From: Alphaproteobacteria bacterium
GTDB lineage: Bacteria > Pseudomonadota > Alphaproteobacteria > Rs-D84
Length of the DNA stretch: 45,438 nt
Direction: 5' to 3'
Assembly: GCA_024402815.1 (NCBI GenBank)
Contig: JAKSTB010000001.1
Coordinates: 1-45,438 of the forward strand
In this document: positions 2,675-8,443 of the stretch, piece by piece
How positions within the stretch are numbered: the stretch's first letter is position 1
Layout of the letters: each line of letters begins with the position of its first letter
Notes under the pieces: model-generated
The model's input: the letters and a program-made list of their open reading frames with translations, nothing else
What the model was told of the DNA's origin: nothing
Databases searched by the model: none
Translations under genes and position numbers: made by a program

Positions 2675-3607
2675 ATGAGAAAATTTTTTGAACACCTTTT
2701 GTTATCTATATTGTTGATCATGTCCGTTGTGTTGGGAATGACCTTTTGGTTGAACACAAAATTTGGGTTTAACCTGCTGTCTGCAAAGCACTGGCAAGAA
2801 TTGGCTTCGCTTCAGGCCGCCCACACACCGATTGATAAAACTTTCTATATATCTTTGGGTGTTGGCGTATTTATATTGATATTCGGGTTGTATTTAATAT
2901 TCCGCCCACGTTTCAGAAAATTACCAAAACCTGTGATTTCTCAACAACCAATTCCACAACAACCCGTAGTTGTACAAAAACAACCCGAACCCAAACAGGT
3001 TCAACAAACCCAACCTGTGCAAAACACGCAACCTGAACCTCAACCCCAGGAACAAGATGTACCTGTGTCTGCCCTGATGAACAGACCACCAAAATTAAAT
3101 CTGCCAAAAAACATGGAGGCTTTGGCCCAAAATAATTATATGAAACAACAAAATTCTGTATCAGACAATAATGTTTCCCAACAAAATACAACTATATACG
3201 ACCAAGAATTACGCGATATATTTGAACAAAACAGTTATGTGGTTAAACCTAATTTGACGATCTCAGGATTAAAAACGAATTTATTTGCGATTGGTAATCA
3301 CGAAGTTTTGTGGATGGGTGCGGTTGATTGTGATATGAATAAACTGAAAGCCTCAATCGGTAAATTAAGGGATTTGTTTGAAGAAACACTGGAAGATATT
3401 CCAATCAATATATTTGCATTCATATTGGATACAAAGAACGTCTATACCCCCAGCGATGACATAATGGTATTCCATTCAATTGAAGAAATATCTGAATTTA
3501 TCTCTAATAACCCGGCTGATAACATAGACGAAGACGAAAAAGAAAATTTTGATGCATATTCAGATTATATTGATAATATAATATCTATGGCACCGCATCT
3601 TATGTAG
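2675..3607 (+). CDS. hypothetical membrane protein with P/Q-rich linker
   Basis: 310 aa. Two N-terminal hydrophobic helices (LLLSILLIMSVVLGMTFWL, FYISLGVGVFILIFGLYLIF), then a low-complexity tract (QQPIPQQPVVVQKQPEPKQVQQTQPVQNTQPEPQPQEQ), a roughly 170-aa globular C-terminal part and an acidic tail (DNIDEDEKENFDAYSDYID). Confidence 0.6.
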   Translation: MRKFFEHLLLSILLIMSVVLGMTFWLNTKFGFNLLSAKHWQELASLQAAHTPIDKTFYISLGVGVFILIFGLYLIFRPRFRKLPKPVISQQPIPQQPVVVQKQPEPKQVQQTQPVQNTQPEPQPQEQDVPVSALMNRPPKLNLPKNMEALAQNNYMKQQNSVSDNNVSQQNTTIYDQELRDIFEQNSYVVKPNLTISGLKTNLFAIGNHEVLWMGAVDCDMNKLKASIGKLRDLFEETLEDIPINIFAFILDTKNVYTPSDDIMVFHSIEEISEFISNNPADNIDEDEKENFDAYSDYIDNIISMAPHLM

Positions 3608-3636
3608 TAATGTAACGTAACAAAGGGATAACACAA

Positions 3637-4143
3637 ATGCAATTCAACCAAGATTCTGCAATGGCGAGATTAAGTTCTCTTGGTATGGATGATATGCCTG
3701 TTATGGAATACACACCCAAACGTTCTTGTGTGGACAAAGATTGGTTTAAAACCTATTCCATGTTGCGTCATGAATTTATGTCATCATTAACAGATTCTTT
3801 TGAAGAAATCGCTTTTATGAATTTATCCCAAGATGAATTTATGAATTTAATTATGGGCAAACAAATGCCAGAAAACACATCTATCAGATTCAGGATTCCT
3901 TTAACCTTGGGTGGCGAATTAAGCGTTGATAATATGTTTATGTGTTTGACTTTTCCACACAGTCAAAACTTGGACAGATTTATAATAGAACAAAGTGATG
4001 CAACAAAACTGTTTTTACCAAACCCAGAAAAAAAGATTTATGTAACAACTCATTTGGCTGGTGGTGGTGATGGCGGTAACGCTACATCCGACAGATTAAG
4101 TGTTTCCGCTATGAATTTTGCTGGTGGCAGAGGAAACGAATAA
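3637..4143 (+). CDS. hypothetical protein with possible degenerate HNH-like core
   Basis: 168 aa, with AAGGGA upstream of the ATG. The segment IRFRIPLTLGGELSVDNMFMCLTFPH resembles the HNH pattern HH-x-x-P-x-x-x-GG-x5-N-x3-C-x4-H, but F-R replaces the His-His dyad. The C-terminus is Gly-rich (GGGDGGNATSDRLSVSAMNFAGGRGNE). Confidence 0.5.
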   Translation: MQFNQDSAMARLSSLGMDDMPVMEYTPKRSCVDKDWFKTYSMLRHEFMSSLTDSFEEIAFMNLSQDEFMNLIMGKQMPENTSIRFRIPLTLGGELSVDNMFMCLTFPHSQNLDRFIIEQSDATKLFLPNPEKKIYVTTHLAGGGDGGNATSDRLSVSAMNFAGGRGNE

Positions 4144-4144
4144 C

Positions 4145-4579
4145 ATGACGAAACAAGAATTTTTATCTTTTATGAAATCACGTGGTGCAACATTTACACC
4201 ACCTGCAACGCAGACCGAAATTACTTTGGCATCGGCAAATTTACAGGGCATACGCGCTGCAATGTTGCCTACGTTTTTGGTTGATTTATATAATTCTTGT
4301 TCTGGAATTATATTGGGATCTGCATATATTTTTGGACCAAAACAAATTGAACGTGATATAAAATATCATGTTCCATCTATATTGGATATAAACAAAGATG
4401 TATCTGGAAATAAAAATTTATTCGGCAAAACCGTATTCGGCCGTAATGATTTATTTTGGTTTGCAGTTGATGCATTGGGTAATTGCGTTATGTTGGATAA
4501 TTTAACTTTGTCCGTGATGCGCAAATATGATGATCCATATCGCGCAATGATAGATTGTTTGGTCGTTGGGAAAATTTAA
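4145..4579 (+). CDS. SMI1/KNR4 (SUKH)-like protein, putative immunity protein
   Basis: The ATG at 4145 lies 1 nt after the upstream stop; the track start at 4118 would overlap. Two SUKH-1-like segments are present: AAMLPTFLVDLYNSCSGIILGSAYIFG and FGRNDLFWFAVDALGNCVMLD. Size is about 144 aa. Assigned by eye only. Confidence 0.5.
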   Translation: MTKQEFLSFMKSRGATFTPPATQTEITLASANLQGIRAAMLPTFLVDLYNSCSGIILGSAYIFGPKQIERDIKYHVPSILDINKDVSGNKNLFGKTVFGRNDLFWFAVDALGNCVMLDNLTLSVMRKYDDPYRAMIDCLVVGKI

Positions 4580-4582
4580 TTT

Positions 4583-4795
4583 ATGCATAAAATATCTGTA
4601 TCTTTGTCGGGACATCAAACCAGTATTTCACTGGAACAGGAATTTTTTGATTGCCTGCAAAATATTGCAAAGGAACAAAATGTTTCGATTGCATCTATTA
4701 TAAAATCAATTGATGACACCAGATCCCCAGATACTAATCTTTCTTCTGAAATACGGATATGGATATTGAAGCAATTATTGAAAAAGCTAAAATAA
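4583..4795 (+). CDS. ribbon-helix-helix domain protein (RHH_4-like)
   Basis: 70 aa. The pattern SVSLSGHQTSISLEQEFFDCLQNIAKEQNVSIASIIKSIDDTR...NLSSEIRIWIL matches the alphaproteobacterial RHH_4 pattern (GH-TS-sLE..F...L..iA......l..li..iD..R...NLSSaiRvfvL). Confidence 0.75.
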   Translation: MHKISVSLSGHQTSISLEQEFFDCLQNIAKEQNVSIASIIKSIDDTRSPDTNLSSEIRIWILKQLLKKLK

Positions 4796-6749
4796 TCATC
4801 ATCCATAAATTCCGCCCTAATCTTCTATACAGCGCTTCATGCGCACCCCACACAAACCCATCCAAAGAACCATTTTGTCCAACCGGCATCCATGATTCGA
4901 CCTTTCCATCACTGGCGACAAAAGCGCTGATTCCCGAATAATTCGCACGGATAACAGGAACCCCAGATTCAATCGCATAACGTTTCACCATATCCAGATG
5001 CTGAAATACCCCCGGTGTTAAACCAAACCAAGTATCATTTGTAATATTGATAATTGCATTTGGTGTAATACGATTTGGAATCAAAGAATCTGAAAATATA
5101 ATTTCATAACAAATCGCGGGTGCAAAAACAAAATCACCACGTTGTGTATTTATAACTATCAGTTCTGGACCATTGCCCGCCTCTAATTGTCCAGGTGTTG
5201 GAATTATATCACCAAATGGGCGATATTCACCGAACGGAACTAAATGAGATTTGCTGTATAAATTATCAATCACACCAGATTTGTTTGCCACAACCATAGA
5301 GTTATACATTTTGCCATCTGCATAATGATTCACACCCATAACCACATTTGTATTTAATATGTGTGACAATGGGAATTTATCATCTACAACCACATATGGA
5401 TAAGTTGTTTCTGGATAAACAATAATATCAGGTTTGTTTGTTTTGTCGGCGGTTGCCCAAACAAATAAATCGCGAACCTTTTGGTCGGCCTGTTGTTGTG
5501 CCTCTGCCCTTGTCTTTGGCATTTTGTACACGGCAGATTCAGCGGGTTGCACAATTCTAATCAAAGGCAAATTATCCATATTTACATTATCAATTTTTTT
5601 CATATTGTGATATCCATAAACACATCCAACCACGAACAAAGAAACAAACATTAAAAATATAACCCAACAAGATTTGCATTTTTTGTTTTTCAAAATTTCA
5701 ACCAAAGAAGCAACCAACCCAATGATAACAAAAGTCAATCCCAATGCACCCCACATCGCCATAGAATTAGCGACCATTGGAAAATGCATAGTTATATTTG
5801 ATACTGGATTCCATGGAAAACCTGTGAAAATCCATTCCCGTAACCATAAAACAAACATCCAAGTGGCAGTAAACAAAATAGCCCTGGGTGCCGGTTTGCG
5901 CTTTACATATCTAATAACCGCAAAAGGCAGAGACAAAATAATTCCGCAAATCAAACCGATTCCCAATAATCCTGGTATTGTCCAAATTGCAAATTGACGC
6001 GCCAGTTCCGGAACAACATAAATAGAATTCAAAACCCACCAAAACATAAACATCCCATAAAACGCACCGAAAGGAAATGTTATCAACCAAGATTTCATAA
6101 AACTGACATGCTTTGTTTGTTTGATTGTTAAATAATATGCACCGCCCACACCTAACGTAAACAACATCCATAAATAAAATGGTGCGAAACCAAAGGAAGC
6201 AATTCCGCCGAATACAGCATATAACACATATTGCCAAAATCCATTTTCACGTATTTTTATATTTTTTAATTTTGTTATAAATTTACCGGGGCAACAAGAT
6301 TCATCACAGCAAACAATATCTTCATCTGCATAAGGATTCTTATATCCCAATTTTTTTAATATTTTGATTTCTTTAGATTCCATAATCTTGGCTTCTTGAT
6401 CTGTTAAATGATCAAAACCCTGCAAATGTAAAATTCCATGAACAATCATATGCGCAGTATGTTCCGAGACAGATATGTTTTCTGCATCCGCTTCTTTTTT
6501 CACAGTATCTAATGATATAAAAATATCACCCAATAAAACATCATCACCCAATTCAAAAGATAACACATTTGTAGGTTTATCAAAACCGCGATATTCCCTG
6601 TTTAATTTACGAATTGTTTTATCATCAACCAATGTAATTGAAACTTCGGCATCTTTGTGTTCGGCAGAAACCGCCGCATTGGCGATTTTTTCAAAATCTA
6701 TTTTATATTTTTTCCAATTTTTATTTTCGATATTTACATATACTTTCAT
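4734..6749 (-). CDS. fusion protein: endoribonuclease YbeY (N-terminal) + apolipoprotein N-acyltransferase Lnt (C-terminal)
   Basis: One uninterrupted frame. The N-terminal ~150 aa carry the YbeY metal motif HMIVHGILHLQGFDH and end in the typical LGYKNPY. A linker ADEDIVCCDESCCPGKFITKLKNIKIRENG follows. The Lnt part has TM helices and CN-hydrolase triad contexts (VYPETTYP, SKSHLVPFGEY, APAICYEIIF). I chose the start at 6749 (MKVYVNIE...) because the track start at 6860 overlaps the mucR-like gene. Confidence 0.85.
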   Translation of the reverse strand: MKVYVNIENKNWKKYKIDFEKIANAAVSAEHKDAEVSITLVDDKTIRKLNREYRGFDKPTNVLSFELGDDVLLGDIFISLDTVKKEADAENISVSEHTAHMIVHGILHLQGFDHLTDQEAKIMESKEIKILKKLGYKNPYADEDIVCCDESCCPGKFITKLKNIKIRENGFWQYVLYAVFGGIASFGFAPFYLWMLFTLGVGGAYYLTIKQTKHVSFMKSWLITFPFGAFYGMFMFWWVLNSIYVVPELARQFAIWTIPGLLGIGLICGIILSLPFAVIRYVKRKPAPRAILFTATWMFVLWLREWIFTGFPWNPVSNITMHFPMVANSMAMWGALGLTFVIIGLVASLVEILKNKKCKSCWVIFLMFVSLFVVGCVYGYHNMKKIDNVNMDNLPLIRIVQPAESAVYKMPKTRAEAQQQADQKVRDLFVWATADKTNKPDIIVYPETTYPYVVVDDKFPLSHILNTNVVMGVNHYADGKMYNSMVVANKSGVIDNLYSKSHLVPFGEYRPFGDIIPTPGQLEAGNGPELIVINTQRGDFVFAPAICYEIIFSDSLIPNRITPNAIINITNDTWFGLTPGVFQHLDMVKRYAIESGVPVIRANYSGISAFVASDGKVESWMPVGQNGSLDGFVWGAHEALYRRLGRNLWMMIILAFSIIASISISVFQKKD

Positions 6750-6759
6750 AATACGCACC

Positions 6760-7116
6760 CTATTTTTTACCGAACCCATGTTTCTTTGCAATCTTGGAAC
6801 GTTTGTTTGCATATTTTGATGCAACGAAAGGATAATCCAAAGGCAAACCCCATTTTTCACAATATTGTTGCGGGGTTAAATTAAACTTTCTTTTGATATA
6901 CCGCTTTAACATGACGTGCCATGTACCGTCTTCAAAACATTGAATTGCATCATCAGTTACAGAATCTGCGATTTGTTCAGGGGTCAAAGAAATGCCACGC
7001 AATATCTCAGTTGCCTGTTTTACGGCATCTTTCATAGATAATTTTGGGTTTGCACCTATGGCTGCAGCCGCCAAAGTTGCCACCGCCAACGTAAATTCAG
7101 AATCTTTATTTACCAA
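6760..7116 (-). CDS. Ros/MucR family transcriptional regulator (zinc ligands largely substituted)
   Basis: 118 aa. The C-terminal segment LKRYIKRKFNLTPQQYCEKWGLPLDYPFVASKYANKRSKIAKKHGFG matches the Ros/MucR signature (LKRHL...hGLTPeeYR.KWGLP.DYPMVAP.YA..RS.LAK..GLG). TTG start preceded by AAGGA 7 nt upstream. Confidence 0.8.
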   Translation of the reverse strand: MVNKDSEFTLAVATLAAAAIGANPKLSMKDAVKQATEILRGISLTPEQIADSVTDDAIQCFEDGTWHVMLKRYIKRKFNLTPQQYCEKWGLPLDYPFVASKYANKRSKIAKKHGFGKK

Positions 7117-7186
7117 TTGATAATCCTTTGATTATTTAATACAATAATTATATCACAAATAAATATCAAATAAAATAAAAGTAAAA

Positions 7187-8443
7187 ATGACACGTCCACT
7201 GGCAGATTTAATGCGACCTCAAATCATCGATGAAATCGTTGGGCAAACCAATTTATTGGGGGAAAACGGCATTATTCACCGCATGATAGAAAATGGCAAT
7301 TTATCAAATTTGATTTTGTGGGGTCCACCGGGATGCGGAAAAACAACAATCGCACGTGCTTTGGCAAAATCAGTAGATATGGATTTTGTGCCAATGTCCG
7401 CGGTGTTTTCAGGAACCGCCGATATAAAAAAATCTATGGATGCGGCGCGTATGAATCGTGATTTGGGACGTGGCACTTTGTTATTTATTGATGAAATTCA
7501 TCGTTTTAATAAAACACAACAGGATACTCTGTTGCCCTATTTGGAAGATGGCACCGTAACATTTATTGGTGCGACAACTGAAAACCCCAGTTTTAATTTG
7601 AATAACGCTTTGTTATCCAGATGTCATATTGGTGTATTGAAACCGCTGTCTACGGAAGATTTGTTGACATTGATTAAACGTGCAGAAAAATTTTTAAGTA
7701 AAAAATTACCTCTTGATAATGATGCAAAAATTCATTTGGCACAAATGTCAGATGGCGACGCCAGATTTTTGTTAAACACGGTTGAATTTATATCTGGTGC
7801 AAAATTCAAAAAAAATATGACACCTGATGAATTAGATTCGGCAATTCAAAAACGCGCACCTATGTCCGACAAATCTGGGGATGAACATTATAATTTAATT
7901 TCTGCGGTTCATAAATCTTTGCGTTCATCCGATACAGATGCCGCATTATATTGGGTTGCGCGCATGATGACGTCAGGCCAAGATCCGCGATATATACTGC
8001 GCAGATTAACCCGCTTTGCAATGGAAGATGTTGGATTAGCGGATCCCCAAGCAATGCAGATTGCCCTGGCCGCTTGGCAAATTTATGAACGCATGGGTTC
8101 ACCAGAGGGCGACATTGCCCTGACAGAATTGGTAATTTATTTGGCAACTGCGCCAAAAAGCATTTCTGCGTACAAAGCACAAACTGCATCATATGCTTTT
8201 GCAAAACAAACATCTAATTCTGTGCCACCAAAAAATATTTTAAACGCGCCAACCAAGATGATGAAAAATTTGGGATATGGCGATGGTTATGTTTATGACC
8301 CAGAAACAGAATCAGGATGCAGTGGTCAAAATTGTTTCCCAGATGATATGGAACGCAAAAGTTTTTATAAACCAATCGAACGCGGTTTTGAACGCGAAAT
8401 CAAAAAACGTTTTGATTATTGGAATTCTTTCCGTAAAAAATAG
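7187..8443 (+). CDS. rarA: replication-associated recombination protein A (AAA+ ATPase)
   Basis: 418 aa. Starts LADLMRPQIIDEIVGQ, has Walker A GPPGCGKTTIARALA and Walker B LLFIDEIHRFNK, plus the MgsA C-terminal domain (HYNLISAVHKSLRSSDTDAALYW). Confidence 0.93.
   Translation: MTRPLADLMRPQIIDEIVGQTNLLGENGIIHRMIENGNLSNLILWGPPGCGKTTIARALAKSVDMDFVPMSAVFSGTADIKKSMDAARMNRDLGRGTLLFIDEIHRFNKTQQDTLLPYLEDGTVTFIGATTENPSFNLNNALLSRCHIGVLKPLSTEDLLTLIKRAEKFLSKKLPLDNDAKIHLAQMSDGDARFLLNTVEFISGAKFKKNMTPDELDSAIQKRAPMSDKSGDEHYNLISAVHKSLRSSDTDAALYWVARMMTSGQDPRYILRRLTRFAMEDVGLADPQAMQIALAAWQIYERMGSPEGDIALTELVIYLATAPKSISAYKAQTASYAFAKQTSNSVPPKNILNAPTKMMKNLGYGDGYVYDPETESGCSGQNCFPDDMERKSFYKPIERGFEREIKKRFDYWNSFRKK

Follow-up and report, generated by a model that had tools for sequence, protein, structure and literature searches.

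An in-frame fusion of the endoribonuclease YbeY to the apolipoprotein N-acyltransferase Lnt in the alphaproteobacterial order Rs-D84

The metagenome-assembled genome (MAG) of an Alphaproteobacteria bacterium of the order Rs-D84 (GCA_024402815.1; 884 kb, 66 contigs, 6% contamination) carries a gene, ybeY::lnt, in which the endoribonuclease YbeY is joined in a single reading frame to the apolipoprotein N-acyltransferase Lnt. We analysed this gene within a window of 45,438 nucleotides (contig JAKSTB010000001.1, positions 1 to 45,438). The fusion is real and undescribed: full-text literature searches retrieved no description of a YbeY-Lnt fusion, and the papers found on Candidatus Enterousia or Rs-D84 do not mention one, which bears out a preliminary description, made from the sequence, whose author knew of no such architecture. 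It is very probably a genuine, vertically inherited fusion that yields one ~77-kDa bifunctional inner-membrane protein, most simply understood as a tolerated or mildly useful by-product of genome compaction. It joins two known enzyme families and is not a new kind of system; it is ancient and stably inherited.

The reading frame (P0001) runs uninterrupted on the minus strand from an ATG at 6749 to a TAG at 4734-4736 and encodes 671 amino acids. A longer reading of the frame, starting from a GTG at 6860, was rejected: the additional stretch overlaps the upstream mucR gene, and the homologues begin at the methionine of MKVYVN, so that ATG 6749 is the real start. The layout of the gene is as follows.

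4734..6749, minus strand: ybeY::lnt fusion gene, 671 codons plus a TAG stop; the sole ybeY and the sole lnt of the genome.
6321..6749, minus strand: YbeY domain, residues 1-143 (Pfam, NCBIfam, alignment to 1XM5, Foldseek).
6408..6440, minus strand: YbeY metal-binding motif H104-x3-H108-x5-H114 (HGILHLQGFDH), invariant in 115 homologues.
6270..6320, minus strand: linker or insert, residues 144-160 (DIVCCDESCCPGKFITK), which matches neither E. coli YbeY nor E. coli Lnt.
6291..6311, minus strand: cysteine cluster C147 C148 ... C152 C153 (homologue alignment).
5580..6269, minus strand: Lnt membrane domain, residues 161-390, with transmembrane (TM) helices 1-7 and the invariant FPW313NP (Pfam LNT_N at 181-344, AlphaFold2, Foldseek).
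4830..5579, minus strand: periplasmic CN-hydrolase (nitrilase-like) domain of Lnt, residues 391-640 (Pfam, NCBIfam, alignment, Foldseek).
5409-5411, 5250-5252 and 5109-5111, minus strand: Lnt catalytic residues E447, K500 and C547, respectively, all invariant.
4740..4814, minus strand: C-terminal TM helix 8 of Lnt, residues 646-670 (AlphaFold2 model).

Both enzymes are recognized by profiles well above threshold. Pfam places YbeY (PF02130) at residues 13-134 (3e-36, 124.5 bits for a cut-off of 25), LNT_N (PF20154) at 181-344 (58.6 bits), and CN_hydrolase (PF00795) at 465-617 (73.3 bits), and the NCBIfam equivalog models agree, with 135.1 bits against a cut-off of 45 for YbeY (TIGR00043) and 203.2 bits against 132.9 for lnt (TIGR00546). 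Residues 22-153 of the 155 in E. coli YbeY (1XM5) align with residues 17-143 of the fusion, and the alignment of E. coli Lnt begins at its residue 15-17, corresponding to 174-175 here. Because the solved YbeY and Lnt align up to either side of the junction (...NPYADEDIVCCDESCCPGK), the true insert comprises only about residues 144-160, and by these alignments both halves are complete. A profile search of all contigs of the 884-kb genome gave one YbeY match and one Lnt match, both in the fusion frame, and no second copy of ybeY or lnt. The preliminary description had proposed one continuous frame holding a complete YbeY and a complete Lnt; profiles, alignments, and conservation in independent assemblies agree with it, and the strings that it quoted (HGILHLQGFDH, LGYKNPY, ADEDIVCCDESCCPGKFITKLKNIKIRENG, YPE, KSHLVPFGE and ICYE) are all present.

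Several lines of evidence suggest that neither domain is degenerate. In an alignment of 115 homologues, the three histidines of the YbeY motif are invariant, as is R54, the conserved arginine of YRGxDKPTNVLSF, and all four align to E. coli YbeY. The Lnt residues E447, K500, C547, W313, E508, Y548, and E549 are likewise invariant. Mean pairwise identity within the genus is 0.81 for YbeY, 0.71-0.74 for Lnt, and 0.49 for the linker. Ratios of nonsynonymous to synonymous substitution (dN/dS, Nei-Gojobori, 12 genus loci) are ~0.09, ~0.17, and ~0.48, respectively, values that are to be read qualitatively, as synonymous sites are near saturation. These figures point to strong purifying selection on both enzyme domains and to a fast-evolving linker. 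The AlphaFold2 model built from the same 115-sequence alignment has a mean predicted local distance difference test score (pLDDT) of 81.8 and a predicted template modelling score (pTM) of 0.70; both domains are modelled with confidence, the YbeY domain at a pLDDT of ~80-86. Foldseek matches the model to YbeY structures (1xm5, TMt 0.79-0.81; 1oz9, TMt 0.83) and to the E. coli and Pseudomonas aeruginosa Lnt structures (TMt 0.73-0.81). The substrates of Lnt should also be available, because Lgt (PF01790, 227.7 bits) and LspA (PF01252, 92.5 bits) are encoded elsewhere in the genome. Taken at the level of sequence and predicted structure, both domains appear to be functional.

The architecture is not a peculiarity of one assembly. 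A search of 5.8 billion proteins returned 880 matches, the best 120 of which are clusters at 90% identity. These 120 are 662-700 residues long, cover 100% of the query at 69-99% identity, and all contain PF02130, PF20154, and PF00795; their assemblies come from ENA, JGI, NCBI, and Logan. The homologue records belong to Candidatus Enterousia and to Alphaproteobacteria MAGs from yak, cattle, and other guts. The named cluster records among these 120 carry only the label "apolipoprotein N-acyltransferase", and therefore these genomes appear in public records to lack ybeY.

The members of the GTDB order Rs-D84, family Rs-D84, all have reduced genomes of about 0.7-1.0 Mb (PMC12306168). Comparison of the orthologous loci in related genomes, which the preliminary description had proposed as a check, found the fusion conserved across both the genus and the family. 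In whole-genome scans of the source organism's own genus, YbeY lies inside an open frame of at least 584 residues in essentially all members, and the few shorter YbeY frames are all at contig ends. Among 17 other genera of the family, 37 of 38 genomes have the fused form, and in the remaining genome the gene is truncated at a contig end; the fusion is thus present in all 18 sampled genera of the Rs-D84 family. The apparently unfused exceptions in genus and family (G048, G325, G125, G144, G199, and G270) were discarded, as all of them lie at contig ends. A wider search covered 1.84 billion representatives of clusters at 50% identity, of which the best 150 were inspected, a depth at which divergent fusions scoring below 150 bits would be missed. 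About ten of these 150 are fused proteins or fragments of fused proteins, and those that can be placed match Rs-D84 lineages; the remainder are ordinary Lnt proteins of ~500 residues. The architecture appears to be confined to the order Rs-D84.

Comparison within the order shows how the fusion arose. In three of three outgroup Alphaproteobacteria CorC_HlyC is present and the loci still read ybeY-corC-lnt. None of 78 Rs-D84 genomes, the source genome included, gave a CorC_HlyC match above the cut-off; the absence of corC that the preliminary description had noted locally thus extends to the whole genome and to the order as sampled. PhoH/YbeZ is absent from 40 of 41 genomes, and the single positive genome has 3% contamination. 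With phoH/ybeZ lost across the order, YbeY would have to act without YbeZ, with which it is usually paired. The remaining families of the order have a YbeY of ordinary size, 143-168 residues, and at the loci examined lnt follows it directly in all but one genome (G053). The two genes are in the same frame in G049, separated by one TAA and 12 nt, lie 2 nt apart in G052, and overlap by 20-44 nt in G067, G059, and G069. To judge from these junctions, one stop-codon substitution or a small indel is sufficient to fuse such pairs.

Two further fused lineages, G051 (family f4) and G073 (family f3), have unrelated linkers. In a maximum-likelihood tree of the Lnt domain, G051 is sister to the fused family (support 97/93), and G073 is nested among unfused f3 genomes (97/85). 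The placement of G073 means that the fused state needs at least two origins, one ancestral to the Rs-D84 family and family f4 together, the other within a genus of family f3. The G073 fusion sits on a 6.5-kb contig (L013, G073:C47) with 60% GC, in an order that mostly has 27-38% GC, and another f3 genus, G069, has 53% GC at its ybeY/lnt locus. Because of this value in G069, and because the Lnt tree puts G073 inside f3, the contig is probably genuine rather than contamination. A different Lnt fusion or duplication was observed in G054 (family f2; L017, 2384-5917), where a 1177-residue open reading frame directly after ybeY holds two complete tandem Lnt units, with two LNT_N and two CN_hydrolase stretches.

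The comparison supports the following scenario. The ancestral alphaproteobacterial ybeY-corC-lnt cluster lost corC in the genome-reduced order Rs-D84, in which phoH was lost too, and ybeY and lnt came to lie side by side or to overlap; the two were then joined when the stop codon of ybeY disappeared or the frame shifted slightly. In the present-day gene, translation would begin at ATG 6749 and the N-terminal YbeY would fold in the cytoplasm. The lysine/arginine-rich segment together with TM1 of Lnt would act as an N-in signal anchor that keeps YbeY on the cytoplasmic face, and the eight-helix Lnt body would place the nitrilase-like domain in the periplasm. There, the E447/K500/C547 triad would form an acyl-thioester from phospholipid and then N-acylate the diacylglyceryl-cysteine of lipoproteins made by Lgt and LspA. 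The YbeY domain would serve the maturation of the 16S rRNA 3' end and the quality control of ribosomes as a zinc-dependent endoribonuclease, here bound to the membrane and made at a 1:1 ratio with Lnt. Co-expression of the two enzymes or spatial restriction of the RNase might be of mild benefit.

The topology assumed in this scenario is supported by several features. The Lnt membrane domain opens with a lysine/arginine-rich juxtamembrane segment, with a median of 5 such residues in the 20 preceding TM1. The AlphaFold2 model has eight long helices arranged like those of E. coli Lnt, helices 7 and 8 flanking the nitrilase-like domain. In the E. coli enzyme the N-terminus is cytoplasmic. By the positive-inside rule the Lnt portion would be oriented with its N-terminus in, and the charged residues before TM1, the helix layout, and the orientation of the E. 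coli enzyme together place YbeY on the cytoplasmic face, on a tether of ~17 residues. The preliminary description had argued that the topology would keep YbeY cytoplasmic, and the charged segment and the eight-helix model support this, the orientation itself being inferred.

Some points weigh against one bifunctional protein born simply of compaction. The two predicted activities, the single ~77-kDa product, and the membrane location are all read from sequence. The AlphaFold2 model has no confident packing between the domains (pTM 0.70, linker pLDDT below 50), and nothing in it shows cooperation between YbeY and Lnt. The linker is predicted to be disordered and hence accessible to proteases, so that post-translational cleavage there would give two proteins. 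Finally, a pure by-product of compaction does not explain the near-invariance of two linker cysteines, C147 and C152.

These cysteines bear on the alternative that survives best, namely that the fusion reflects a real functional coupling, in which YbeY is held at the membrane together with lipoprotein and envelope biogenesis and the cysteine cluster regulates the tethered RNase as a metal-binding or redox-sensing element, such as a zinc knuckle, a thiolate cluster, or a cysteine-switch-like ligand of the YbeY zinc site. The operon linkage of ybeY and lnt across Proteobacteria (10.1101/2023.03.20.533420) speaks for such a coupling, as do the origin of the fusion at least twice and its retention through a whole family. 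Within the genus, only C147 and C152 reach at least 90% conservation in the otherwise fast-evolving linker; C153 is frequent (CCPG), and C148 occurs in this strain only. Linker variants such as CxC-x3-CxxC and runs of 7-8 cysteines also resemble metal-thiolate motifs. However, linkers are cysteine-free in all other fused genera and in both other fusion lineages (G051 and G073). Moreover, two close homologues have no linker cysteine and one 99%-identical homologue has only two, fewer than four ligands are conserved, the segment is disordered in the AlphaFold2 model and evolves at a dN/dS of ~0.48, and adjacency or overlap of the genes would by itself also yield repeated fusion. We therefore regard functional coupling as unlikely, while giving it some weight.

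The composition of the linker was tallied over 121 close homologues. The pattern C-x(3-6)-CC-P is found in 85/121; a further 10/121 have CxC/CxxC...CxxC, 5/121 have 5-8 cysteines, 2/121 have none, and 19/121 have 2-4 cysteines in other arrangements. The CC-x3-CC pattern itself is literally present in this strain. The corresponding linker segment of the 99%-identical cluster is VCSDESCYPG, with two cysteines, and that of a 98%-identical yak MAG is GCSDESCCPG, with three. The number of cysteines thus ranges from 2 to 4 among strains 98-99% identical overall (P0002 and L021), and it is expanded to 7-8 elsewhere in the genus, e.g. CDCECDCEYGCCCC. For a motif with two conserved core cysteines, this is an unusually rapid turnover. 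A conserved metal site with four ligands at fixed spacing was rejected, given a cysteine count of 0-8, only two ligands at 90% or more, and just two cysteines in the 99%-identical homologue. The speculation in the preliminary description that CC-x3-CC binds a metal or an Fe-S cluster is weakened accordingly: the four-cysteine form is strain-specific, cysteine-free linkers occur in two close homologues and in all other fused genera, and the pLDDT is below 50 at residues 143-166, although AlphaFold2 models no metals and this last point is weak evidence against an ordered site. On the present alignments the cysteine cluster is an add-on of the genus Enterousia, not needed for the fusion as such. 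The near-invariance of two cysteines in a fast-evolving segment nevertheless points to some selected role, plausibly metal-thiolate or redox. One could also imagine, as a conjecture to which we give only a small chance, that in Enterousia the juxtamembrane C-x4-C(C)PG element senses metal or redox state and so gates the zinc site of the tethered RNase, replacing in cis the lost cation-homeostasis partner CorC, and that the fusion is a "Rosetta stone" for a tie between YbeY and the membrane.

It is also conceivable that the cell ends up with two standard proteins, a free YbeY and a free Lnt, either through cleavage in the flexible linker or through separate synthesis of Lnt from an internal start. 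Besides the predicted disorder of the linker, this strain does have an in-frame GTG at V174, inside TM1 (helix 171-185), and an in-frame ATG at M195 (LWM). The latter is the first ATG past YbeY. The preliminary description was right that no ATG lies between the end of YbeY and TM1, but M195 opens the second predicted TM helix (194-210) and is not inside TM1, where it had been placed. A start at V174 or M195 would truncate Lnt, since both lie within TM helices, and neither codon is conserved. Across 12 genus loci no conserved in-frame ATG, GTG, or TTG was found in the stretch from the end of YbeY to TM1. Several genera have a linker of just ~3-10 residues, as in ...NPYKKSNTFFIMIICG... and ...KIRREKWRGLMFFALG..., which is too short for a cleavage module and leaves no space for an internal ribosome-binding site. 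An internal Lnt start was rejected as a conserved mechanism on these two grounds, the missing conserved start codon and the short linkers, and together they indicate that Lnt is translated only as part of the fusion. As for cleavage, no protease site is known. Two separate products are therefore improbable.

Another possibility is that the YbeY moiety is a decaying relic, kept merely as an N-terminal extension of Lnt. The strong reductive evolution of these genomes and the loss of the YbeY partners PhoH/YbeZ and CorC would be in keeping with it. However, with 81% pairwise identity and a dN/dS of ~0.09, YbeY is the best-conserved part of the protein and not a relic; in addition, neither its metal ligands nor R54 vary among the homologues, the equivalog model gives it 135 bits, and it is the sole YbeY of the genome. 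A relic is thus very improbable. An assembly, binning, or sequencing error, that is, a frameshift or a lost stop in a MAG as fragmented and contaminated as this one, is effectively refuted, as the same single frame, maintained by selection, recurs at 40-99% identity in hundreds of genomes and contigs that were assembled independently, some of the genomes consisting of one contig or a few.

The genes flanking the fusion in the window are the following.

6760..7116, minus strand: gene for a ROS/MucR-family regulator, upstream of the fusion, its stop 10 nt before the fusion start.
4583..4795, plus strand: convergent RHH_4 gene; the 3' ends of this gene and of ybeY::lnt overlap by 62 bp.

The mucR gene and ybeY::lnt are probably co-transcribed. 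In two of four sampled genus members that have mucR, it lies directly upstream of the fusion, and in the other two ~2 kb lie between them (L022 and L023); mucR was not detected beside rarA in L024 and L025. From these four loci, the linkage to mucR is not universal. The 62-bp overlap with the RHH_4 gene is conserved in 6/6 genus loci examined and may reflect compaction, or else antisense or termination coupling. The RHH_4 protein (70 residues) is the last product of a four-gene operon on the plus strand (2675-4795), preceded by a 310-residue P/Q-rich membrane protein and by proteins of 168 and 153 residues, neither of which has a Pfam match. This operon adjoins the fusion in all genus loci, and the order RarA, (MucR), YbeY::Lnt, convergent RHH is conserved across the genus. 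A promoter and terminator scan of 4400-7400 gave counts no higher than in shuffled sequence.

Compared with known systems, the fusion retains the two enzymes, the order, and the strand of the E. coli ybeZ(phoH)-ybeY-ybeX(corC)-lnt operon and of the alphaproteobacterial ybeY-corC-lnt cluster. In two outgroup loci (L018 and L019) a corC-like gene still stands between ybeY and lnt. The present locus differs from the canonical operon: the order has neither corC nor, in 40 of 41 genomes, phoH, and ybeY and lnt form one frame here with a 17-residue insert; the upstream neighbour is mucR, not phoH or miaB. The YbeY half has the full length and the H3xH5xH site of stand-alone YbeY (E. coli 1XM5, Aquifex aeolicus 1OZ9, and Staphylococcus aureus 7Y7O), with a predicted fold at TMt 0.75-0.83 and 34-39% identity over the Foldseek alignments. 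Stand-alone YbeY is soluble, whereas the C-terminus of the fused YbeY continues into a membrane protein, a predicted inner-membrane tether. The Lnt half shares with stand-alone Lnt (E. coli 5N6H/5XHQ/8B0L and P. aeruginosa 5N6M) the eight TM helices, the nitrilase-like domain, the E-K-C triad, and the W, E, and Y-E accessory residues, at TMt 0.73-0.81. It differs by its 160-residue cytoplasmic N-terminal extension, that is, YbeY, and is only ~20% identical to the solved Lnt structures.

RNase E, anchored by an amphipathic helix, and RNase Y, anchored by an N-terminal TM helix, are also RNA-processing nucleases at the cytoplasmic face of the membrane. Their anchors are dedicated short segments, whereas YbeY, a nuclease of another family, is anchored here by an entire unrelated enzyme. 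An Lnt with a C-terminal extension (P0173, 816 residues) and the tandem Lnt-Lnt of G054 indicate that Lnt tolerates added domains at its cytoplasmic termini; these forms have a different fused partner and no YbeY.

From a biological perspective, the fusion is only modestly novel in mechanism unless a regulatory role emerges for the linker or the tethering. To our knowledge, YbeY is nearly universal, and every organism studied so far is strongly affected by its loss. How exactly YbeY acts is still debated, and we know of no accepted explanation for the persistent operon linkage of ybeY to corC and lnt. Against this background, Rs-D84 offers a family of about 300 species-level genomes in which the sole YbeY is fused with an integral membrane enzyme, in some cases with just a few residues between the two. 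At the practical level, the annotation of the Rs-D84 fusion proteins should be corrected. The order also provides an example of the stepwise passage from operon to fusion during genome reduction, from ybeY-corC-lnt through adjacent or overlapping genes to a fused gene, at least two times, and a natural construct for the membrane tethering of an RNase. The arrangement indicates that the essential function of YbeY can run from the cytoplasmic face of the inner membrane, which constrains where late 30S maturation and quality control occur. If the "Rosetta stone" reading is true, the function of YbeY would be compatible with, or even tied to, the inner membrane and envelope lipoprotein biogenesis.

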